Notes under the pieces: model-generated
Seen by the model: only the letters and a program-made list of their open reading frames with translations
Told to the model about the DNA's origin: nothing
Database searches by the model: none
Origin: a virus
Lineage: Duplodnaviria > Heunggongvirae > Uroviricota > Caudoviricetes
DNA: 10,491 nucleotides
Virus record (IMG/VR): IMGVR_UViG_2690316028_000010
Direction: 5' to 3' (one strand)
Position numbers and translations under genes: made by a program
Shown: positions 1 through 10,491 of the stretch, in pieces
Layout: every line of letters begins with the position of its first letter
Numbering within the stretch: position 1 is the stretch's first letter

Positions 1-780
1 TTATGGCCTTGTATTTCCTTTTCTTAACTTCTTTTCGCTCTTTTTTACAAGCTTAATTAACCACTCTGGCTCATCCGACAGTTCGGAGTAATAGCAGTAT
101 TCTGGTATTGCTTTCCAAAATGTTGTTATTGCATCAGCAAATTCAACAAACTGTTCTTCTGTTACATGCAGATCATCATGAGTAGGATTGATATGTCTGC
201 CGCATATACCAGTAGGATGAGGGTAATATTCTGGATGAGTTGATGATAGGAGGCGGTGAGAATTTCCATCACCATGTTTGTACACATTTACGACTAATGC
301 GCACGCTTTGAGCTTATCGCCATAATCAGTTTCATCTATCTTGAGACCGATCCACTCGAGCAGTTTCAACAGTTGATCAAAATTTAAATCCCAAACCATT
401 GGTGTAATGATCTCTTTATCACACCAATGAGACAATTCTCTGATCGTTTTTTCTCGTAACTTTTTATCGAACTGGTGATACATACCCGCAGTTACTGCCA
501 AAAGAACAGTTTCTTGCATTTCAATAAGTGACCAGACGTAGTTTACACCCTCCTCATATGCTTGCTCATAGGCTGCCATTGGGTCGTCAAAATCAGGATT
601 GAAATGCTCAGCGGTATACTCCAGAAACTGTTTCTCTCGCTCCTCCGCCTCTTGGGTCAGATCCCCAAACTGAGACAAAAGTCTCCGTCTTGCTTCCGAA
701 ACATAAAATTCGTGAGGTTCAAGAAAATAGGGCCGATCTACTTTAGCAAGCCAAAATGTCACGAAGTTATCTGATGACAT
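1..780 (-). CDS. hypothetical protein, 259 aa, AT-rich accessory gene; function unknown
   Basis: Complete ORF: ATG at 780-778 (plus 'cat'), stop TAA at 3-1. SD-like 'aagga' about 7 nt upstream on minus strand. Protein has mixed composition, not low-complexity. Local GC is clearly lower than the central block (by-eye count of the first 120 nt ~37%). No family recognised. Confidence 0.6.
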   Translation of the reverse strand: MSSDNFVTFWLAKVDRPYFLEPHEFYVSEARRRLLSQFGDLTQEAEEREKQFLEYTAEHFNPDFDDPMAAYEQAYEEGVNYVWSLIEMQETVLLAVTAGMYHQFDKKLREKTIRELSHWCDKEIITPMVWDLNFDQLLKLLEWIGLKIDETDYGDKLKACALVVNVYKHGDGNSHRLLSSTHPEYYPHPTGICGRHINPTHDDLHVTEEQFVEFADAITTFWKAIPEYCYYSELSDEPEWLIKLVKKSEKKLRKGNTRP

Positions 781-924
781 AACTTATCCTTGATAATTAT
801 TGTATGGATAGATTATCCAGAAATTTGCGAACTGAGTCGGTCATTTTTTTTTGTGTGCGCGTGATGTAATAAAGGTTCAGGAATATACTGTCAGTTTACT
901 GAAAAACTGGCAACAGAGGCGGTT
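781..924. promoter_or_regulatory. divergent intergenic region between the 259-aa gene (minus) and the 75-aa gene (plus); presumed to hold both promoters
   Basis: 144-bp AT-rich gap with a T9 run (843-851) between two outward-facing start codons. No confident -35/-10 pair could be assigned by eye. Confidence 0.3.
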
Positions 925-1919: not shown

Positions 1920-2301
1920 ATGTCGCGCATTTCTCTTAAACTGGCTGCTGTGTTTGGTGCTAATTATCCATGCAAAGTGGCCTAAGCTACGTGGAAGAAT
2001 GATCAGTTTCGCATTATTTGGTTCAAGGAGGGCTCCCCCACAGCCTCACTCTCTGAATGCAAAACAGCCCCACAATCCCACTGTTAAAAGTCCCAGCTTG
2101 AAAATTGCACGCTTATGGTTGCCCCTCCCTCAACTCTATAGCTCGCCCGCGCCCCCGTGTGCATGTGCGTGCCCGCGCGTCAGGGGTCGCTGAGAAACCC
2201 TAAGATTTTGCTCATCCGAGACAAGCATTACCTGCACCTGTAAAACGCGAAATTACCTCTCAAACACCACACATAAACCCACTTTGCATTGAGATCTGAC
2301 A
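1920..2301. other. ~380-bp GC-rich, apparently non-coding spacer with C-rich runs and an alternating purine-pyrimidine tract
   Basis: Only ORF here (1954-2193) is Pro/Ala/Arg-rich and low-complexity. Contains 'gcccgcgc' twice (2146-2153, 2171-2178) flanking 'gtgtgcatgtgcgtg' (2157-2171). Sits upstream of the capsid-like operon. Confidence 0.4.
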
Positions 2302-2649
2302 ATGACCTTACTGACACCTGAAAACGTGGCAGCGGCTAGGGCTGCCCGTAGCGCGAGGATTGAACACTGGAAAGCCAACGCCAGCCAGCTTAAGCAGGAC
2401 TTTGCTGACGAAGCGCACTGGCGGCGGCTCGCCTCACGCTTCGGCGTGCGTATGCCCTCGGCGTATGTTCCCGGCTCCGAGCTGCGATTGCTGCGCCGGG
2501 CGGCCAAACGCGCGGGCATCTCTGGTGCTGATATGCGCGATGCTTTTGGTGGGGGCGTTGCGCACCTGCACGAGCTTAATCCCCATTGGCCTGCCTTCGC
2601 GCTTATCGGCCTGATTCTTGAGATCGCGGCTGAAAAAGCTGCTGCCTGA
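2302..2649 (+). CDS. hypothetical protein, 115 aa, Ala/Arg-rich with hydrophobic C-terminus; first gene of the capsid-like operon
   Basis: ATG 2302, stop TGA 2647-2649. Codon third positions G/C-biased, consistent with real coding in this GC-rich block. Function not recognised; a small scaffold or packaging-associated protein are possibilities only. Confidence 0.5.
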   Translation: MTLLTPENVAAARAARSARIEHWKANASQLKQDFADEAHWRRLASRFGVRMPSAYVPGSELRLLRRAAKRAGISGADMRDAFGGGVAHLHELNPHWPAFALIGLILEIAAEKAAA

Positions 2650-2717
2650 TTCATCCCATTCTCTTTTCCCCTTTTCCATAAATCGCGCTGGCTAACGCTG
2701 GCGCGGGAGCTATTTCT

Positions 2718-3713
2718 ATGACTGACAATGTTTATACCCCTGACCAATTCCGCCCGCACTGGGGCGGTGTAGATGCTGACAACGACATTCACATTGAAGC
2801 GTATGACCGGGACGTTCAGACCCGCCTTGAGGCAAAGAGCGTGTTTCTCGCCGAGGGGCTGAGCACATACAAGCCGCTGAAAAACAGTAATCAGTATCGT
2901 GTAGACCGCCTGAGCGGAGATCTGGAGGTGAAGGGCAGAACCGCAGGGCAATCGCTGGAGCCTACCGCCGTTAAGTCGGACAAGCTGATTATCTCTGTGG
3001 ATACGCTGAGCTATATCCGCATCCCGATTGACTATCAAGACGACTGGACAGCGCCCACCTTTCGCGCAGAGCTGAGCCGCAACATGGGGACAGCCCATGC
3101 AAAGTTCTACGACGAAGCGCACACTATCCAGCTAATCAAAGCGACTGACTTTGTACCGCCGCCTACGTTGCAACCAACGTTTAACCCGCTGACGGATAAT
3201 GTTGTCTCGCTCGACCTGACAACGGGGAGCGAAGAGGATGCGGCTAACGAACTGGTTCACGCTATTAAAGCTGCTGTTAATCGATTCCTAACTGAAAAAG
3301 ATATTCCGGTGGCGGAGCTGTGCCTTCTCATCGACCCAGCTTGGTTCAGCATCCTGATGGAACATAAGAAGTTGATGAACGTCCGTTACAGCCGGGATAG
3401 TGGCAATGATTACGCATGGCGTCGCGTTGGCTATGTCGCTGGGGTGCGAGTTATTGAGCTGAACAGTTACCCGCAGGAAGCCATTACCGCGCATGAACTG
3501 GGCGCTGATTATGATGTGACCGCAGGGGAAGCGCTGACACGGGCGACGCTGTTCCGGCCTGCGTCTGTACTTGTGACAGTCGAAGCGCAGAGCGTTATCA
3601 ATCGCCAGTGGGATGATGAACGCGAAATGACAATGGTGATGGACTCATATCGCCTGTTCAATGTTGGGCTGCGCCGCCCTGACTGCGTTATAAATTTCCG
3701 ACAAGCTGCATAA
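2718..3713 (+). CDS. putative phage major capsid protein (HK97-fold / T7 gp10-like), 331 aa
   Basis: ATG 2718 with SD 'gggag' ~8 nt upstream; stop TAA 3711-3713. Several segments resemble T7-type capsid proteins from memory (e.g. 'IPVAELCLLIDPAWFSILM', C-terminal 'GLRRPDCVINFR'). Followed 17 nt later by an HNH gene, a common capsid-module neighbour. Similarity is by recall, not alignment. Confidence 0.5.
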   Translation: MTDNVYTPDQFRPHWGGVDADNDIHIEAYDRDVQTRLEAKSVFLAEGLSTYKPLKNSNQYRVDRLSGDLEVKGRTAGQSLEPTAVKSDKLIISVDTLSYIRIPIDYQDDWTAPTFRAELSRNMGTAHAKFYDEAHTIQLIKATDFVPPPTLQPTFNPLTDNVVSLDLTTGSEEDAANELVHAIKAAVNRFLTEKDIPVAELCLLIDPAWFSILMEHKKLMNVRYSRDSGNDYAWRRVGYVAGVRVIELNSYPQEAITAHELGADYDVTAGEALTRATLFRPASVLVTVEAQSVINRQWDDEREMTMVMDSYRLFNVGLRRPDCVINFRQAA

Positions 3714-3729
3714 CAAAAGGGGCCGAGCC

Positions 3730-4161
3730 ATGAATATTGATGCTTATGCCCCGGAGCTGTTGCGCTCTTTGTTTCGGTACGATGCGAAGACTGGCCGCCT
3801 GTTCCATGCAGTAGACCGGATCGGAGCCAACAAGCGGATTTACGCTAAAGCCGGGGAACTGGCCGACACGGTAACGGACAGCGCCGGATATAGGCGCGTA
3901 TCTGTCCGCATCAATGGCAAATCTCATGCGCTATACGCCCACCGTGTCGCCTTCATCATTGCTAATGACGGTATCCCTGCCGGGATGCAAATCGACCATA
4001 TCAACGCGGTACGCGATGACAACCGCCTTATCAATCTCCGCACGGTTACGCCACAAGAGAACCAGCACAATTACCGCAAAGCCAAGGGTTATAGCCACCA
4101 TGCCTGCTCTGGCAGATGGGAGGCTTACATTCGCGTTGGTGATCCACCGCGCGATAAATAA
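3730..4161 (+). CDS. HNH endonuclease (HNH_3-type, phage-associated), 143 aa
   Basis: ATG 3730 with SD 'aaagggg'; stop TAA 4159-4161. Clear HNH signature 'IDHINAVRDDNRLINLRTVTPQENQHN' and the N-terminal 'GYRRVSVRINGKSHALYAHRVAFI' pattern typical of this family. Confidence 0.85.
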   Translation: MNIDAYAPELLRSLFRYDAKTGRLFHAVDRIGANKRIYAKAGELADTVTDSAGYRRVSVRINGKSHALYAHRVAFIIANDGIPAGMQIDHINAVRDDNRLINLRTVTPQENQHNYRKAKGYSHHACSGRWEAYIRVGDPPRDK

Positions 4162-4200
4162 GCCGCAATCCGTGAGATAAATGGACACGGTGCGGCTTTT
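4161..4200. terminator. bidirectional intrinsic terminator candidate between convergent HNH and tape-measure genes
   Basis: Imperfect hairpin: 'agccgca' (4161-4167) pairs with 'tgcggct' (4191-4197), inner stem 'ccgtg'/'cacgg', followed by TTTT (4197-4200) on plus strand and an A/T-rich run on the other side. Lies in the 66-bp gap between the two converging stop codons. Confidence 0.5.
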
Positions 4201-4227
4201 CAGATACTGCAAAGGAATTACAGATTA

Positions 4228-6711
4228 TCAGTCGTAAGCAACCCGGCGCTTACGGGCAAGGATAGCTTCCAGTGCTCTTTCAATCTCAGGAATGGACAGC
4301 TTAAGCGCATTGGCCACATCCGGTGCTGGTGACTTGTTCTTGCCATCAATATAGATATTGTTAATGACGTTAATCCCGCCGCCTGCGCCTGCTGGTGAAT
4401 GAGAGTCCCGGCCTCTGGGTAAGGTAAGGTCGCCGCGCATATAGCGCTCTAATACGGGGGGTACTTTCGGCACATCCGGCACCATCATATCAGCCAGCCG
4501 CGAGGAGGCTTTCAGCGCCAGTGATGCAGACTGACCAATGCCAATCGCCGCCCCTTCTGCGATATTAGACCCGAAGCCCATAAATACACGGCTTGGCGAG
4601 TGAATCCCCAGCTTTTCCTTGAACCAGCCGCCGACACTGTCACCCATCTCAGTGACGGTATTCTTGAGAGACTCCCACTTGTTTTTGATACCGTTCACCA
4701 GTCCATCAATCAAGTGACCACCAAACTCAGTAAACTGGCCGGGAAGGTCGATGTTAAACCACTTCATGACCCCCGCAAACGCCTTGTAGAACAGCCCCAG
4801 CGGCGACCAGTTCAGGATTAGCTTACTGACACCAAGAACCCCGCCGTTAAAGGCTGTTTTCACTTCCTCCCACCGCTGCGAGAACCATCGGCTTATCGCG
4901 CCCCAGTTGCGGTAAATCAGGTACGCGCCCCCGGCGATGATGGTTATCGCAATGCCTATGGGGTTCATTAACAGCGCCCTGCCAAACCAGAGGAAAGCCT
5001 TTGCCACCACCATTACGCCTCTGAACAGTCCACCCGCCAGCGCTTTACCCAGCATTCCGGCTCCCTTCGCCACGGTACTGAATCCGGTAGCCAGCCAGCG
5101 CAGCTTTCCGCCGTCGCTCAGGGCGGTTTTGAGCAACAGCCAGTTAGTGCGCAGCAGTACGGCGTTTTTCCACAACCCGGCGAACGGTGATACCAGCAGA
5201 TTCAGGCCGAGTTTCAGCCCGACAGTGGCGATTTTCAGCCCCAGCAGTACGCCCACGGTTTTTGCCACACCCTGAACAATGCCGGGATGTTGCGCTATCC
5301 ATTGCCCGGTGGAATGAATCAGCGGAATCAGTTGCTGCGTCATTGACACGAACGAGGGAGACAGTTGACTGCCAAGGGTAATGGACAGTTCGCGGGTGCT
5401 GACCATCAGTGCTTTGGTCGCCTCCAGCGGCGATTTCAGTCGCTCCGTGTAGGAGGAGGCCAGCAGGTCTTTATCCGCCGCCTTAAGTGCGCCAGCCCTG
5501 ATTTCGCGGTATTTGTCCATGTTGGCGAGCATCGGACGGACAAACGCCATGACCTGCATATCGGCGAACATCTCACCCAGACCGAAATTCTTTGCCAGTT
5601 CCTGTAACGCAAGGTCGCGGGAGTTATCGTCCTTGATTTTCATTGCTTTCTTGAAGCCTGCCAGTGCTTCCGGGCTTTTGGCCTCCAGATACCTGCCCAT
5701 GACGCTTATCATGCCCTCAATGGGCGAGACGCCAGCAGATTTATAAGCCATGAGTGACCCCTGAAGGTCAATCCCGATATCGGCAAACTGTTTCTGCGTG
5801 TCGCGGGCAAAAATCTTGGTGAGGAAGTTACGGAAGTTGTTACCAGCCTCGTCAGATGACCCGGCACCAATTCGGGCAATCTGTAAACTCGCTCCGATTT
5901 CCGCCATCGCTTCTTTACCTTCGGCAATACCGCGCATCATCGGGGCAAGAGATGGCATCCATTTCACCTGGTCAGGTATTTCAAAAGACCCTTGGTCGCC
6001 TGCAAAGGCCATGATGTTCTGTACTTTGGCAAACTCTTTAGCGCTGCCATCCATCGAGTTTTTCCAGACGGCGGCAACCTTCGCCCATTCCGTCCCTGTG
6101 GTGCGTGTGGCAGTAGCGGCGCGGGCTATATTGGGCATGAAGCTGCCAATTTCGGACACACTGTCGATATTGTCACTGATAAGCGAGCCTACGGCGTCCT
6201 GTAAGTCGCTCTGGTACTGGTTGTACTTGAGCGACCATCCCCGGATTTGCTGCCCCAGACTGGCGCGGGTTTTATCGTCATATTTCGCCGTGATCGACAT
6301 ATCAATCATCTTGTCGTCGAACGTAGCCGACTGCTGAATCGCCGGGGAAACGAGGCTGTAAGCGGCTTTGGCCTGCGCCCACGTCTCAATTCCCTGTCCA
6401 TAAAGCGCCATCCGGTTAGCTCTCAGGGCATCGGTTGTGGCAGACGCTGCCGACAGGCGGGACTGCTGGCGGTTTAGTTGCTCCAGCGTTCTGCCTACCC
6501 GTTGCAGGTCATTGTTCAGGCGTGAGGCCACGCCTGAACCTACCTGACCGTAACGCTGCATGGCGCGTGACAGGCTGCTTTGTTGCTCGGTCAGGCGGCG
6601 TGACGTGTCGCCGAGAGAATCAAGCGCCCGCCGTGTGCCGCTGACGGCGGAACGGAAGCTGCTCCCGACAATACCGCCAATCATCACACCAACAGAAAAA
6701 TTATTGCTCAT
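4228..6711 (-). CDS. phage tail tape-measure protein, 827 aa
   Basis: ATG 6711-6709 with SD 'ggagtg'; stop at 4228. Helical N-terminal region, long central Gly/Ala/Leu-rich hydrophobic segment, and C-terminal 'GIHSPSRVF'-type motif that I recall from tape-measure proteins. Size is typical. Confidence 0.75.
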   Translation of the reverse strand: MSNNFSVGVMIGGIVGSSFRSAVSGTRRALDSLGDTSRRLTEQQSSLSRAMQRYGQVGSGVASRLNNDLQRVGRTLEQLNRQQSRLSAASATTDALRANRMALYGQGIETWAQAKAAYSLVSPAIQQSATFDDKMIDMSITAKYDDKTRASLGQQIRGWSLKYNQYQSDLQDAVGSLISDNIDSVSEIGSFMPNIARAATATRTTGTEWAKVAAVWKNSMDGSAKEFAKVQNIMAFAGDQGSFEIPDQVKWMPSLAPMMRGIAEGKEAMAEIGASLQIARIGAGSSDEAGNNFRNFLTKIFARDTQKQFADIGIDLQGSLMAYKSAGVSPIEGMISVMGRYLEAKSPEALAGFKKAMKIKDDNSRDLALQELAKNFGLGEMFADMQVMAFVRPMLANMDKYREIRAGALKAADKDLLASSYTERLKSPLEATKALMVSTRELSITLGSQLSPSFVSMTQQLIPLIHSTGQWIAQHPGIVQGVAKTVGVLLGLKIATVGLKLGLNLLVSPFAGLWKNAVLLRTNWLLLKTALSDGGKLRWLATGFSTVAKGAGMLGKALAGGLFRGVMVVAKAFLWFGRALLMNPIGIAITIIAGGAYLIYRNWGAISRWFSQRWEEVKTAFNGGVLGVSKLILNWSPLGLFYKAFAGVMKWFNIDLPGQFTEFGGHLIDGLVNGIKNKWESLKNTVTEMGDSVGGWFKEKLGIHSPSRVFMGFGSNIAEGAAIGIGQSASLALKASSRLADMMVPDVPKVPPVLERYMRGDLTLPRGRDSHSPAGAGGGINVINNIYIDGKNKSPAPDVANALKLSIPEIERALEAILARKRRVAYD

Positions 6712-6742
6712 GGTTCACTCCGGTTGAGTGGTTCGGTGGGCG

Positions 6743-7336
6743 TCATTCAGTCAGGGACAGGCCGCTGATTCCGGTAATCCCGGCAATTTCTTCGCTGACG
6801 GCTGCCAGTTCACTTTCAAGCCCGGTGCGTTCGCTGACCAGTGCCGCCACGGTCTTACGGCGCTCTGCCAGTGAGGGAAGTTTGTCATTACCCCACGTCA
6901 CGCTCTTATCCTTCTTAAGCGCTTCGGTCAGTCGGGTGGCGACCACATCCGGGAAGAAAAAGCAGAGCTTGCGCATTACCGCCATCCCGGTATCAGCCGG
7001 GGGGACGTTTCCTCCCAGCCCCACCAGACGGAACAGACCGGAAATATCGCCGTTCTCATTTTCCAGATTGCCCCAGCGTTCGGCGTTCCCTTCACCGCCG
7101 GAACCGTTGCAAAGAGCACGCTTGAATGACTGATATTCTTCCTGCCCGAATCGCTCAATATATTCAGGAATAAAGGAACAGTAATCATTAAGTGATAACG
7201 GCATATCCTGTAATGCGGTTATTTCGCCATTAATATCACCAATGCGACGAGAGAGCTTTTCTTTCTGCTCATTCAGGGAGGTAAGGTTATTTTTAACGGC
7301 GTTCAGTGCTTCAATGAGGGAAATAACAGGTTTCAT
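6743..7336 (-). CDS. hypothetical protein, 197 aa, coiled-coil-like N- and C-termini; possible scaffold-like or tail-assembly accessory protein
   Basis: ATG 7336-7334 lies 1 nt after the upstream gene's TAA (taaAATG) with SD 'ggag' inside the upstream gene's 3' end; stop TGA 6745-6743. Heptad-like ends; no slippery heptamer seen at the 3' end. Confidence 0.5.
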   Translation of the reverse strand: MKPVISLIEALNAVKNNLTSLNEQKEKLSRRIGDINGEITALQDMPLSLNDYCSFIPEYIERFGQEEYQSFKRALCNGSGGEGNAERWGNLENENGDISGLFRLVGLGGNVPPADTGMAVMRKLCFFFPDVVATRLTEALKKDKSVTWGNDKLPSLAERRKTVAALVSERTGLESELAAVSEEIAGITGISGLSLTE

Positions 7337-7337
7337 T

Positions 7338-7952
7338 TTAATAACTCCAGATAAAAGGTGTAGTGAGGGTGAGCGCTTCGGAATAGGAGACGTTGCAGGC
7401 TTCGCTTACATCCTTTATTAAAAGGTGCTGCGCTGCCCTCTGGCTGTCGGCTATGCCGTCGAGCTCTGAGAAATAAACGTGTGATTCATTGTGACCAAAA
7501 CAAACCGGGTAAGCGCTTTCCATAAACTCCACCTGCTCAAGCCCCTTTACGGCTGGCGGCTGTGCGCCGAGAAAACCAATATGGCGAAGATACCAGGCAC
7601 CAGTTCCGGCCGGGTTACGCGCTTCTCCCGGCCTGTAGAAAGCGGCAGACACTTTTTTATATAGACCTGACTGAACCATATCCAGCAACCTGTTATCAGG
7701 CTTAACCAGCGCGAAAAGTCTGCCGTTTTTACTTATCAGTCCGGTGGTTTCACCATAGGCGGGACTGTTACTGGCCGGATGCCCCAGGCACAGCGGCGCA
7801 CCATAACCCGCGCGATGATAGCCGTTATAGGCTGCTGCCATGTTGTCGATATCCTCGTCGGAAAAGCTGATTTCCTGCCCCGCCATCGCGGTATGTGTTC
7901 CCGCCCGGAATATCTCAATAGTTTTCCAGTTACCAATATTGATATCTGTCAT
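7338..7952 (-). CDS. putative GPO-family prohead protease / capsid scaffolding protein, N-terminal protease-like domain, 204 aa
   Basis: ATG 7952-7950; stop TAA 7340-7338. Recalled resemblance to P2 gpO N-terminus: 'FRAGTHTAMAGQEISFSDEDIDNMAAAY' vs gpO 'FRIGVEGDTCDGRVISAQDIQEMAETF', and 'LCLGH' vs gpO 'INLEH'. Shorter than P2 gpO (~284 aa). Confidence 0.55.
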   Translation of the reverse strand: MTDINIGNWKTIEIFRAGTHTAMAGQEISFSDEDIDNMAAAYNGYHRAGYGAPLCLGHPASNSPAYGETTGLISKNGRLFALVKPDNRLLDMVQSGLYKKVSAAFYRPGEARNPAGTGAWYLRHIGFLGAQPPAVKGLEQVEFMESAYPVCFGHNESHVYFSELDGIADSQRAAQHLLIKDVSEACNVSYSEALTLTTPFIWSY

Positions 7953-7953
7953 T

Positions 7954-8481
7954 TTATATTTGTCCCTGTTTCATATCGCGGCACTCTTTGTTTTTCTTAC
8001 GCTCGGCGGCAATAATCTGATAAATCCACTGAATAGAATTGCCATATTTCCTGGCTAATTCCCGATGAGTCATCCCTTGTTTGTAATCGGAAAATATCCT
8101 GGCATTTCTGTCGAAAGAGTTTCTGGCTGCGCCATTAGGTATATAGAAATTGTTACCTTTAAAGACCCTTCTAAGGTGTTCTGTAATTTCCGGGGAAATG
8201 ATTTCGGCCTGAGCCGAAAAGCAATGTATTGTAAGCAAAGCCTGCGCTATCACACCTGTAAGCTCATGCAGAAAAGATGTTGCTTTAGGGGCGTCTTCAC
8301 ATTCTATTGGCATGTAATTCTGGCAACCACCAAGATTATCAGATATATGCAAAACAATTTTATTTGCTGCACTACTTGCCTGAAGTTGTGAATAGCCCGC
8401 ATCAGTCAGAAAATCTTCAATCGCATCCCCCATTTCCCCCAGAGTGTCAGATGTTGCGTACAATCCCTCTCTTGTAATCAT
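7954..8481 (-). CDS. Mor/C-family transcriptional activator (Mu middle/late activator family), ~175 aa from ATG 8481
   Basis: C-terminal region matches the Mor pattern: 'NFYIPNGAARNSF' (cf. Mor 'QVYIPRG'), 'RIFSDYKQGMTHRELARKYGNSIQWIYQIIAAERKK' (HTH). ATG 8481-8479 has SD 'gagg' ~7 nt upstream; the ORF-track start at 8487 is a GTG too close to the SD. Stop TAA 7956-7954, 1 nt before the next gene's start. Confidence 0.75.
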   Translation of the reverse strand: MITREGLYATSDTLGEMGDAIEDFLTDAGYSQLQASSAANKIVLHISDNLGGCQNYMPIECEDAPKATSFLHELTGVIAQALLTIHCFSAQAEIISPEITEHLRRVFKGNNFYIPNGAARNSFDRNARIFSDYKQGMTHRELARKYGNSIQWIYQIIAAERKKNKECRDMKQGQI

Positions 8482-8509
8482 AATCACACCTCGGTAATGA
8501 TAAAGATGT

Positions 8510-8614
8510 GCGCTAAAAAGGCTTTATAAAGCTTTATGAGGCGTCTTTCTGGTGACAAATCAGCACATACACCATTAACGCTTTAAAATGGCTTACAGGC
8601 TTTTTTAGCGCGGG
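8510..8614. promoter_or_regulatory. regulatory region upstream of the Mor-like gene: 12-bp palindrome, tandem 'gctttat' and flanking 10-bp inverted repeats
   Basis: 'ataaagctttat' perfect palindrome at 8526-8537; 'gctttat' at 8521-8527 and 8531-8537. 'gcgctaaaaa' (8510-8519) is the inverse of 'tttttagcgc' (8602-8611). Promoter hexamers not confidently assigned. Confidence 0.35.
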
Positions 8615-8681
8615 TTACTAATGTGGATTAAGAATATGGTTTTGGGGCGGGGATGTTTTTTAATGTACTTTAGATATGAAG

Positions 8682-8703
8682 AAGCCCCTCAGAGGAGGGG
8701 CTT
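8682..8703. terminator. GC-rich hairpin (9-bp stem, 4-nt loop) immediately downstream of the 96-aa gene; candidate intrinsic terminator
   Basis: 'aagcccctc' (8682-8690) pairs perfectly with 'gaggggctt' (8695-8703), loop 'agag'. Sits 17 nt past the TAA at 8722-8720; the flanking run on the minus-strand transcript is only moderately U-rich. Confidence 0.45.
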
Positions 8704-8719
8704 GCGGGATTACGCCAGA

Positions 8720-9010
8720 TTATTGAGGTCGTCTGTCTTTCCTCAATCCATCAAGTAGCGCCATGGCATCAGTAACCAGTATGCCAGCAGCATCCGTAAC
8801 CATCGAAACATCAGAGGATGCACATGATTTATCCATACCTAATGTTGACGCAAAATCAAGTAGCTTACGAACTGCGTCAAGTCGATAGGTGGCAGAGTCG
8901 TAAATTAACTCCTGATTAGCATCAGTCTTTAAAAACATAATATCATCAGAGGCACCTTGCGAAAATGACGGCATCGCACGGAAAGTATTTTGAGTTTCAG
9001 CCTGTTTCAT
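8720..9010 (-). CDS. hypothetical protein, 96 aa
   Basis: ATG 9010-9008 overlaps the upstream gene's TGA (ATGA, coupling); SD 'ggagg' ~8 nt upstream; stop TAA 8722-8720. Confidence 0.5.
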   Translation of the reverse strand: MKQAETQNTFRAMPSFSQGASDDIMFLKTDANQELIYDSATYRLDAVRKLLDFASTLGMDKSCASSDVSMVTDAAGILVTDAMALLDGLRKDRRPQ

Positions 9011-9744
9011 TGTGCAGTCCTCCGGCTAATAGCGAATTTATTATAAACTTCATAACTGGCAGCATTCAGTCCGGGGTTGTATTTATCAGCCAGAGCACAG
9101 GCAATCATATGTTCAATAAATTTTGTTATTGCGTTAAGTTCAGTTTCGTTTGAATAACGCAATGCCACTTTGAGTAACTCGCGGCAATATTGTTTTTTAT
9201 TCCCTTCGATTTGGCCTGATTTTTTTATTCCTGCCTTTTTATCTGATTCATCCTCAACAGGCAAAGATGGGATATCCTCTTTATTGGTTAGCGTTCTTTC
9301 GCAAATAATATCTTCACCAGATTGAATTACGCGCTGCAACTCTCTGGCGCTCATACGAAGAATATCATCAAGCGTGTGGTCGTTATATGCCCCACCACTG
9401 GCAAGGAGATCCAGTGTCACTTCATCCAGCCGGGCAAGCAGGTTTAACTTCGTTTTGCCGATACTTGTTTTGGCAATTGCGGCTCGGGGGGTATTGGTTA
9501 CGCCAAATATCAGAGCAACCCGCATAGCATTATGGGCTTCACGTTTATTAATTCCCCCCACTGAAAGCGCCTTTGCAAATTCCTCATTTGTTTTTGTTGC
9601 TTCCTTAAGTGCCAGCATCTCTTTACCACGATGCACTAAAGTTTCAGTCGGGGTTGGCAAAAGGAGTACAGCATCTAAAATTTTTTCCCGAAGTACATCA
9701 ACTTGGCTTGCGATGCATGAACGGTTAGACTTGTTGATACCCAT
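9007..9744 (-). CDS. hypothetical protein, ~245 aa from ATG 9744 (ORF track begins at TTG 9765); candidate early/regulatory protein
   Basis: ATG 9744-9742 preceded by SD 'gagga' ~9 nt upstream; stop TGA 9009-9007. Acidic/Lys-rich linker mid-protein; no P-loop or other catalytic motif recognised. Divergent from the RHH gene. Confidence 0.5.
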   Translation of the reverse strand: MGINKSNRSCIASQVDVLREKILDAVLLLPTPTETLVHRGKEMLALKEATKTNEEFAKALSVGGINKREAHNAMRVALIFGVTNTPRAAIAKTSIGKTKLNLLARLDEVTLDLLASGGAYNDHTLDDILRMSARELQRVIQSGEDIICERTLTNKEDIPSLPVEDESDKKAGIKKSGQIEGNKKQYCRELLKVALRYSNETELNAITKFIEHMIACALADKYNPGLNAASYEVYNKFAISRRTAQ

Positions 9745-9774
9745 GATTGTTATCCTCAATAACAATGGTGGTCA

Positions 9775-9809
9775 GGCAGGATGTGATACTGAACCTATCA
9801 TGTCCTGCC
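9775..9809. promoter_or_regulatory. imperfect dyad symmetry (13-bp arms, 11/13 matching, 9-bp spacer) upstream of the 245-aa gene
   Basis: 'ggcaggatgtgat' (9775-9787) vs 'atcatgtcctgcc' (9797-9809). Could be an operator or a 5'-UTR hairpin of the minus-strand transcript. Confidence 0.3.
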
Positions 9810-9840
9810 GCTTGCGGTTTTACATCTACTTAATGTAATG

Positions 9841-9877
9841 TACGTACCATTGATTTCAATCTAAACAATGGTACGTA
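9841..9877. promoter_or_regulatory. perfect 12-bp inverted repeat with 13-bp spacer (candidate operator) overlapping the RHH gene start codon
   Basis: 'tacgtaccattg' (9841-9852) and its exact reverse complement 'caatggtacgta' (9866-9877). The right arm covers the ATG at 9868-9870. Located in the divergent promoter region. Confidence 0.55.
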
Positions 9878-10071
9878 TCATGTCAAGAGTAAAAGATAAC
9901 ACGCCTAAAAATTCCGCAGGGCGTTCCCCGACCTTCCAAATACGTATTACACCTGAACTTAGGGAACAGCTTGATAAAGAAGCTCTTAAAGATGGTGTAA
10001 GTTTGGCCAATTGGCTCAAAGGCATTGCACGAGATGAACTACGCAGGAGAGGTATTTCTCCAAAAGGGTAG
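9868..10071 (+). CDS. ribbon-helix-helix (Arc/MetJ-like) DNA-binding protein, 67 aa; putative repressor
   Basis: 'FQIRITPELREQLDKEALKDGVSLANWLKGIARDEL' fits the RHH beta-strand plus two helices (cf. Arc 'FNLRWPREVLDLVRKVAEENGRSVNSEIYQRVMESF'). ATG 9868 (alternative ATG 9880), both with weak SD; stop TAG 10069-10071. Confidence 0.6.
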   Translation: MVRIMSRVKDNTPKNSAGRSPTFQIRITPELREQLDKEALKDGVSLANWLKGIARDELRRRGISPKG

Positions 10072-10086
10072 GGCTAATCAGGTACA

Positions 10087-10476
10087 AAAAGCGAAAACGT
10101 TTTCGCTTTTATGGCTAAGAGAGCGGATGCACTCATTAAAGCGGACAGCGCTGTCCGCCTCCAATCAGCAAAAAAACAAGATGGTTCCTCCAAAACGCTC
10201 AACGTTGAGCGTTACGTTATTCCGACAAAAGCGCAGGCGCTTGCGCTTTTGAAAGGGATCAACACGGCTTTCAAACCGGACAACGTTGACCGCTTTAAGG
10301 AATCACTGTCGGCTGAGCAAAAACGGCAAGCGCTTGCCGTTTTAGATTCGCGGGGCGGTAAACGTTTACCGTTCTGTGTCAATTATGTTCAAAAGCGAAA
10401 GCGCTTTCGCATTTTCTCACCTAAAGCGGCAAACCTCCTCTGTCTTAGCTGGAAAAACGACATCGCTGTCGTTTTT
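10087..10476. repeat. array of eight hairpin-capable palindromes of one family (A-tract, CG-rich core, T-tract)
   Basis: P1 10087-10110 aaaagcgaaaac|gttttcgctttt (perfect, 24 bp); P2 10141-10158 gcggacagc|gctgtccgc (perfect); P3 10194-10213 aacgctcaac|gttgagcgtt (perfect); P4 10227-10250 (1 mismatch); P5 10320-10343 aaaacggcaagc|gcttgccgtttt (perfect); P6 10356-10371 cggtaaac|gtttaccg (perfect); P7 10391-10414 (1 mismatch); P8 10453-10476 aaaaacgaca-tcgc-tgtcgttttt. Symmetry kept while sequence differs between copies. Confidence 0.85.
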
Positions 10477-10491
10477 AATCCGAGGTTCTAA
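10111..10491 (+). CDS. ORF of 126 aa overlapping the palindrome array; coding status doubtful
   Basis: ATG 10111 directly after palindrome P1, stop TAA 10489-10491 at window end. Repeated peptide motifs (KAQALALL, KRQALAVL, KRKRFRIF) are direct consequences of the DNA palindromes, so the frame may be open by chance. Confidence 0.3.
   Translation: MAKRADALIKADSAVRLQSAKKQDGSSKTLNVERYVIPTKAQALALLKGINTAFKPDNVDRFKESLSAEQKRQALAVLDSRGGKRLPFCVNYVQKRKRFRIFSPKAANLLCLSWKNDIAVVFNPRF

Follow-up and report, generated by a model that had tools for sequence, protein, structure and literature searches.

Gene X and its Protein Family

The window studied here, a 10,491-nucleotide (nt) stretch of an IMG/VR virus record assigned to the Caudoviricetes (IMGVR_UViG_2690316028_000010), begins with a complete open reading frame (ORF) of 259 amino acids (aa) on the minus strand (1–780, with its ATG start codon at 778–780), which we call gene X and whose product is a member of PHROG 19541, an unnamed all-alpha family predicted to fold like a HEPN domain. 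The initial annotation of this DNA had described X as complete and well initiated, and it is: a Shine–Dalgarno site, AAGGA, can be read in the sequence 6 nt 5′ of the ATG (787–791, minus strand), and RefSeq annotates the identical coding sequence in Escherichia coli VREC0864 (WP_023063078.1, “hypothetical protein”). The segment had also been called AT-rich and said to adjoin phage genes. Measured GC content is 0.39–0.415 over positions 1–800 vs. 0.52–0.59 over 2000–7000, and phage-type genes do lie nearby (a major head protein, PHROG 267, at 2718–3713 and an HNH endonuclease at 3730–4161).

The X protein matches PHROG 19541, to which no function is assigned in that resource, over nearly its whole length (E = 2e-76; residues 9–251 on profile positions 3–246 of 246), and scans of X against Pfam, NCBIfam and PADLOC returned no match. 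A word-indexed search found 43 homologues, including members from Enterobacterales, Paraburkholderia, Wohlfahrtiimonas and Paenalcaligenes, and a profile search of 1.84 billion representative sequences recovered 1,331 proteins at E ≤ 0.001, of which 209 reached E ≤ 1e-30; almost all of those recovered are single-domain and about 250 aa long. Clustered at 50% identity, the family comprises 1,331 or more clusters. Two homologues bear the labels “tail assembly chaperone” and “DUF4034,” which we set aside, as no scan reproduced them.

Conservation is concentrated at a few positions. Across 136 family members, some with as little as about 22% identity, H169 and W222 never vary, and F25, F38, L85, R109, V164, N165, K168, G170, G172, L178, F221 and P226 are nearly invariant, giving a family signature of [R]-L-V-V-N-V-Y-K-H-G-x-G plus A-G-M-Y-H-x-[WF]-[DE]-K-x-L-R. 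The strongest motif, V164-N165-V-Y-K168-H169-G170-D-G172 (265–291, minus strand), lies at the C-terminal end of helix 152–169; here H169 is present in 136/136 members, N165 and K168 each in 135/136, and position 164 is valine in 126. A second conserved element, H102-Q-F-D105-K106-K-L-R109 (454–477, minus strand), sits in the long helix 67–116 and contains the pair [D/E]105-x3-R109, with D or E in 135/136 members and R or K in 135/136. These conserved residues are kept in the clade of solitary genes to which the window’s X belongs.

Predicted Fold and Relation to HEPN Domains

A survey of HEPN domains (PMC3710099) places their R-x(4-6)-H motif where helix 3 ends; it usually reads R-[NDH]-x3-H, with N, D or H following the arginine. 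In many families helix 2 contributes another conserved acid, in the pattern E-x3-[K/R], and inserts between helices 2 and 3 are frequent, at times in the form of a helical hairpin (PMC3710099). The motif arginine is needed for activity in KEN and PrrC, while HEPN domains without the motif (MtlR, NTase-fused forms) are probably non-catalytic binders (PMC3710099).

An AlphaFold2 (AF2) model of X, built from a 30-sequence alignment, is all-alpha and of high confidence (pLDDT 90.2, pTM 0.84). In the model, helices 122–131 and 134–143 form a hairpin insert, and helix 152–169 ends in V164-N165-V-Y-K168-H169, followed by G-x-G. The helix-2 pattern E-x3-[K/R] is present as [D/E]105-x3-R109. At the end of helix 3, where R-x(4-6)-H would be expected, the family has V164-N165-x-x-K168-H169, and we propose, from sequence and model, that V-N165-x-x-K-H169 is the equivalent of the HEPN R-N-x3-H with valine in place of arginine. 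The predicted fold of X is, in our assessment, probably HEPN-like.

Several results weigh against this assignment. The motif arginine is missing from its structurally expected site, and position 161, one turn upstream of V164, where a basic residue (R161) occurs in 69% of the family, is alanine in the window’s protein. We infer the match of N165/H169 and D105/R109 to the HEPN site from sequence pattern and predicted secondary structure. At the profile level, no similarity to a recognized HEPN family was found: no HEPN-clan family and no convincing match emerged when 30 and 136 members were scanned against Pfam, single-sequence (phmmer) and profile (hmmsearch) searches of the PDB gave nothing meaningful, none of the 5,027 models in PADLOC-DB v2 matched X at E ≤ 1, and the 136-member profile, compared by hhalign with an HI0074-family HEPN profile, scored a probability of 0.3%. 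The HI0074-type alignment behind that comparison consisted of real PDB and database sequences, with a consensus serving only as bait for their retrieval; a DUF86-like bait recovered only the motif region of HepT, which was accordingly compared by motif and not by full profile. A match to 3dn7 in the PDB sequence search (E = 0.13) was judged to be noise. Foldseek likewise returned no match at E ≤ 0.001 in PDB or BFVD; such an empty result is common for helical bundles, yet the evidence for the predicted fold rests on one method. Because the canonical arginine is absent from the expected site, X is only a putative member of HEPN in the strict sense and a candidate RNase.

The initial annotation had reached HEPN by another route, through the string “RHINPTH,” which is indeed present at residues 195–201 (178–198, minus strand) and fits R195-x5-H201. 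Read in this way, X would be a canonical HEPN RNase with its active site at these residues, and H201 is indeed histidine in 66/136 members. However, whether 30, 52 or 136 family members are aligned, R195 is not conserved: in the largest alignment, its column is mostly gaps or P/F/D/G within the family’s most indel-rich stretch (variable loop 186–205), and an R-x(4-6)-H starts there in only 5/136. In the AF2 model, residues 191–198 form a small beta hairpin plus loop, where the interior pLDDT is at its lowest, and do not lie at the end of a core helix. Furthermore, X contains three R-x(4-6)-H matches (starting at R16, R176 and R195), and 20,000 shuffles of the same composition yielded 1.3 on average, with at least one expected by chance at P = 0.77, in agreement with the original caution that so short a motif could arise by chance. 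Since shuffles give this many matches and R195 is not conserved, we regard R195-x5-H201 as a chance match, and the idea that it forms the active site is hardly credible. The sole widely conserved R-x(4-6)-H in X is R16-x6-H23 (RPYFLEPH; 712–735, minus strand), retained in 87/136 members at the start of helix 1, a position that is not canonical for HEPN.

The HEPN suggestion thus survives in part. An N-x3-H does end the third core helix, the E/D-x3-R is conserved and the motif layout fits, while R195 and H201 were the wrong residues, the arginine is absent, and neither the sequence methods nor Foldseek gave a link to HEPN. If our reading is correct, short-motif spotting arrived at the right superfamily for the wrong reason.

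Genomic Neighborhoods of X and its Relatives

Neighboring genes (±5) were compared at 80 loci from species-representative genomes and 26 from IMG/VR, together with exact-protein look-ups, of which 69 loci were non-redundant. Relatives at least 43% identical to the window’s X are solitary and lie on mobile elements. They occur on P1/P7-like phage-plasmids; in a P2-like prophage of Paraburkholderia, between gpA/ogr and the portal gene and beside PycTM and DUF5677 genes, a site that we take to correspond to the tin/old cargo position of P2; at a prophage end in Moellerella, after the tail fiber genes; and in integrase islands of E. coli, Enterobacter, Paenalcaligenes and an enterobacterial metagenome contig, where X adjoins DUF4145, a HEPN-clan family. 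The clade is also found on 124 plasmids, most of which come from Citrobacter and Klebsiella. X had no match among 50,697 isolated phage genomes, searched at both the nucleotide and the protein level.

More distant relatives, 33–42% identical to the window’s X, show a different and recurrent arrangement. Immediately upstream on the same strand, 26 of the 69 loci encode an MmeI-family enzyme about 920 aa in length (Pfam domains MmeI_N, hel, Mtase, TRD and C; PADLOC type IIG, 7.8e-274); a DEAD/ResIII helicase of about 690 aa follows at +1 or +2 in 23, and a T5orf172/MUG113 (GIY-YIG-like) protein of about 390 aa at +2 or +3 in 16. The resulting order, MmeI-like → X → (insert) → DEAD helicase → T5orf172, is found in about 25 of 69 loci (~36%), where X is translationally coupled, with gene junctions that are mostly 4-nt or 1-nt overlaps, and no further recurrent partner appeared within ±5 genes. 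These operons are chromosomal and were found mostly in Alpha-, Beta- and non-enteric Gammaproteobacteria. Other neighbors of X include RhuM/PDC-S05, PifA, PD-T4-5-like, SLFN_AlbA_2, DUF4145, PycTM and AAA_13 genes.

The operons have the same composition as the DnmA(YeeA)-YeeB-YeeC clusters, a predicted three-component restriction–modification (RM)-like system made up of an MmeI homologue, a DEAD helicase and a GIY-YIG/T5orf172 protein (PMC2731913, PMC9973331). In the described clusters, however, YeeB comes straight after YeeA, so that X is an extra gene at that junction. The dnmA-yeeB-yeeC cluster of Bacillus subtilis works without X, with YeeB directly following DnmA (PMC9973331), from which we conclude that X is accessory and not core. 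X is undescribed as a fourth gene of YeeA/B/C-type operons in Morgan et al. 2009 (PMC2731913) and Fernandez et al. 2023 (PMC9973331), the latter mentioning only unidentified “uncharacterized” neighbors.

Two further observations concern these operons. At nine loci (L029, L044, L059, L074, L075, L085, L087, L089 and L093) the gap between X and the helicase holds one or two more genes, with inserts such as RhuM/PDC-S05, or SLFN_AlbA_2 plus HATPase_c_4 in Bacterioplanes (L012), which suggests that the X–YeeB junction is a hot spot for embedded accessory defense genes. In a quick alignment, inspected by eye, the MmeI-like proteins of 22 operon loci (e.g., L026 7197–9965) have an N-terminal “ATDG....AE” with no evident (D/E)-x-K after it; this sequence pattern agrees with that of the YeeA subgroup in which the nuclease motif is lacking (Morgan et al. 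2009, PMC2731913).

The idea of a cargo or defense gene is supported by a mobile-element context in every close relative examined and by linkage to MmeI-like RM operons in distant ones. We consider it very probable that X is conflict-related cargo.

Comparison with Named HEPN Systems

Among characterized systems, the closest parallels in layout are the HepT/HI0074-type toxins (MNT-HEPN, type VII toxin–antitoxin; PDB 5YEP, 7AE2, 1YLM, 1WWP and 1JOG). As in X, their motif ends the third core helix, the N-x3-H spacing is the same (HepT “GLRNIAVHDY” vs. X “LVVNVYKHGDG”), and the preceding core helix carries an acidic residue with a basic one three positions on. However, there is no detectable sequence homology between them. 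X is also twice the length of these toxins and includes a variable loop and, at its N terminus, a long helical hairpin; it has valine in place of the HepT motif arginine and lacks the tyrosine of H-x-Y, and no recurrent MNT nucleotidyltransferase partner was seen in the 69 neighborhoods.

With the PrrC/RloC anticodon nucleases the shared element is a matter of logic, as PrrC is housed inside an RM operon as a presumed second line of defense (PMC3710099). This likeness holds for the distant relatives of X only, embedded as they are between MmeI-like and helicase genes; the window’s copy is not RM-linked, and the RM partner is MmeI-like/YeeB/YeeC where that of PrrC is type Ic. At 259 aa, X has no ABC-ATPase domain, which in these nucleases is N-terminal and fused to a C-terminal HEPN domain. 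It is also without the motif arginine that PrrC needs (PMC3710099).

For the solitary clade, the relevant comparison is HepS, a single-protein HEPN abortive-infection system from the Salmonella prophage Gifsy-1 (PMC13043305; PDB 9OIK), which was crystallized as the catalytic-histidine mutant HepS-H105A and to which X showed no sequence similarity in PDB searches. A precedent for a HEPN domain without the arginine comes from Parep1/8 of the HEPN-T clade, in which the motif histidine is kept, the arginine is not conserved and other basic residues have been proposed as substitutes (PMC3710099). X and Parep1/8 were not directly compared, and nothing pointing to a specific relationship was found.

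A Proposed Role and its Alternatives

HEPN proteins in defense islands, RM operons and prophages are a well-known theme. As the best explanation of the combined pattern, we hypothesize that X is a latent HEPN-like, RNase-type abortive-infection effector, a reading that we put somewhat below an even chance. Under this model, the window’s X would be the terminal cargo gene of a phage-satellite-like island, encoding a divergent HEPN domain whose helix 2 carries [D/E]105-x3-R109, with a hairpin insert at 122–143 and a helix 3 that ends in V-N165-x-x-K168-H169-G-x-G. The protein would be a latent metal-independent endoribonuclease in which H169 acts with N165, and K168 or R109 may take the place of the absent arginine. 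Activation would come with phage infection, translation would stop, and abortive infection or growth arrest would follow. In the MmeI-like/YeeB/YeeC operons the distant relatives would provide a second line of defense, as PrrC is presumed to do in a type I RM operon (PMC3710099), whereas the window’s clade would be a solitary, one-gene immunity module of mobile elements, similar in this respect to HepS. We favor chemistry over scaffolding because the histidine is invariant, an asparagine lies four residues before it and a lysine beside it, an acid-x3-Arg is conserved, and all of these are kept in solitary copies. That X is an active RNase is nevertheless possible rather than probable. In its broadest form the hypothesis would make X a previously unrecognized arginine-less branch of HEPN, an optional fourth YeeA/YeeB/YeeC component that has repeatedly escaped to mobile elements with a site rebuilt on N165/K168/H169 and D/E105-x3-R109; this composite claim we hold to be slightly less likely, and we advance it tentatively.

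The missing arginine, together with the lack of a sequence-level HEPN link, makes a non-catalytic binder or adaptor a serious rival. X would then be a HEPN-like module that either has RNA or a nucleotide as its ligand or serves as a sensor or adaptor, regulating MmeI-like/YeeB/YeeC when in the operon and a host or phage factor when solitary. Motif-less HEPN domains such as MtlR and NTase-fused forms are probably binders (PMC3710099), and the tight 4-nt coupling of X between the MmeI-like and helicase genes fits the role of a subunit. On the other hand, an invariant, solvent-type histidine with flanking asparagine and lysine and an acid-x3-Arg looks catalytic, the same residues persist where X is solitary and has neither MmeI nor YeeB as a partner, and the B. 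subtilis dnmA-yeeB-yeeC cluster functions without X, so X is no core subunit. On balance we find a purely non-catalytic role unlikely.

Two other explanations seem improbable to us. In one, X is an anti-defense decoy, the solitary copy of which poisons or titrates a MmeI-like/YeeB/YeeC system of the host. Solitary copies are indeed restricted to mobile elements while operon copies are chromosomal, and on one P1/P7-like phage-plasmid X adjoins a Tad2-like anti-defense gene, an association that also tells against an effector role. Such a decoy or anti-defense role is possible, but it is less consistent with the neighbors of X: solitary copies lie among PycTM, DUF5677, DUF4145, AAA_13, Dnd/TGT and a DUF262 protein, and in a P2-like tin/old-type position. 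Moreover, every putative active-site residue is retained, the MmeI-linked operons occur mostly outside the enterobacterial hosts of the window’s clade, and the 50,697 isolated phage genomes yielded no match. In the other, X is a mobile-element gene of an ordinary kind, unrelated to conflict (such as a structural or regulatory accessory), with a generic helical-bundle resemblance to HEPN, as the lack of a sequence-level link would allow and as the “tail assembly chaperone” label of one UniRef homologue (which no scan reproduced) might hint. Set against this are the agreement of the motif layout with HEPN hallmarks, the coupling to a type IIG/L RM-like enzyme seen at about 36% of the non-redundant loci, and the position of X outside morphogenesis modules wherever examined. 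We retain the latent abortive-infection effector as the working explanation, in which the ORF, its family, the pattern of conservation, the similarity of predicted fold and the genomic associations are shown, and RNase activity, catalytic residues, trigger and phenotype are inferred.

The Host Island and the Remainder of the Window

In E. coli VREC0864, X lies 430 bp from tRNA-Gly(CCC) at one end of a ~13-kb block of phage-like genes and genes for hypothetical proteins, with a tyrosine integrase at the other end (L001 19497–33175). This island encodes the major head protein, the HNH endonuclease, a second endonuclease-domain protein, a DEAD/DEAH helicase, a serine recombinase and the tyrosine integrase; its annotation lists no portal, terminase or tail genes, and no convincing att-site direct repeats were found around it. 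It resembles a capsid-encoding phage satellite. The window is mosaic relative to VREC0864, with positions 1–2231 corresponding to L001 20001–22231 and positions 2229–4141 to L001 28121–30033 (both at 100% identity), and a 5.9-kb block (the recombinase, the DEAD/DEAH helicase and several hypothetical genes) is therefore absent from it.

Divergent from X lies a pair of plus-strand genes (925–1610), orf75 (925–1152) and orf153 (1149–1610), neither of which had a family match in library scans; the orf153 product has an N-terminal hydrophobic segment. The pair stands beside X in the same divergent arrangement in Citrobacter (L016) and on one viral contig (L096), and in Raoultella (L015) only orf153 was matched beside X. 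A copy of orf153 also occurs, unannotated and at 92% nucleotide identity, in EPEC E2348/69 genomes without X.

At position 4141, unrelated DNA cuts off the island’s HNH gene (143 aa vs. 175 aa). The interrupting DNA (4141–10491) is a small Mu-like element with genes for a tape measure protein (4228–6711), a truncated head-protease-like protein (7338–7952), a Mor activator (7954–8487) and a YlcI/HicB-like protein (9868–10071). Parts of the window are matched by 193 E. coli genomes, largely through this element, and in strain AW1.7 a ~7.8-kb copy (92.9% identity), in which no transposase is annotated, splits a methyltransferase gene of the ynbC region. The element may be a transposable-phage remnant or a satellite.

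Implications

If the proposed role of X is correct, a sizeable family (1,331 or more clusters at 50% identity) for which Pfam, NCBIfam and PADLOC have no model would be added to the candidate anti-phage effectors, and an undescribed accessory gene would have been identified in the poorly understood YeeA/YeeB/YeeC class. The family would also offer a natural test of how a HEPN site functions when its signature arginine is absent.
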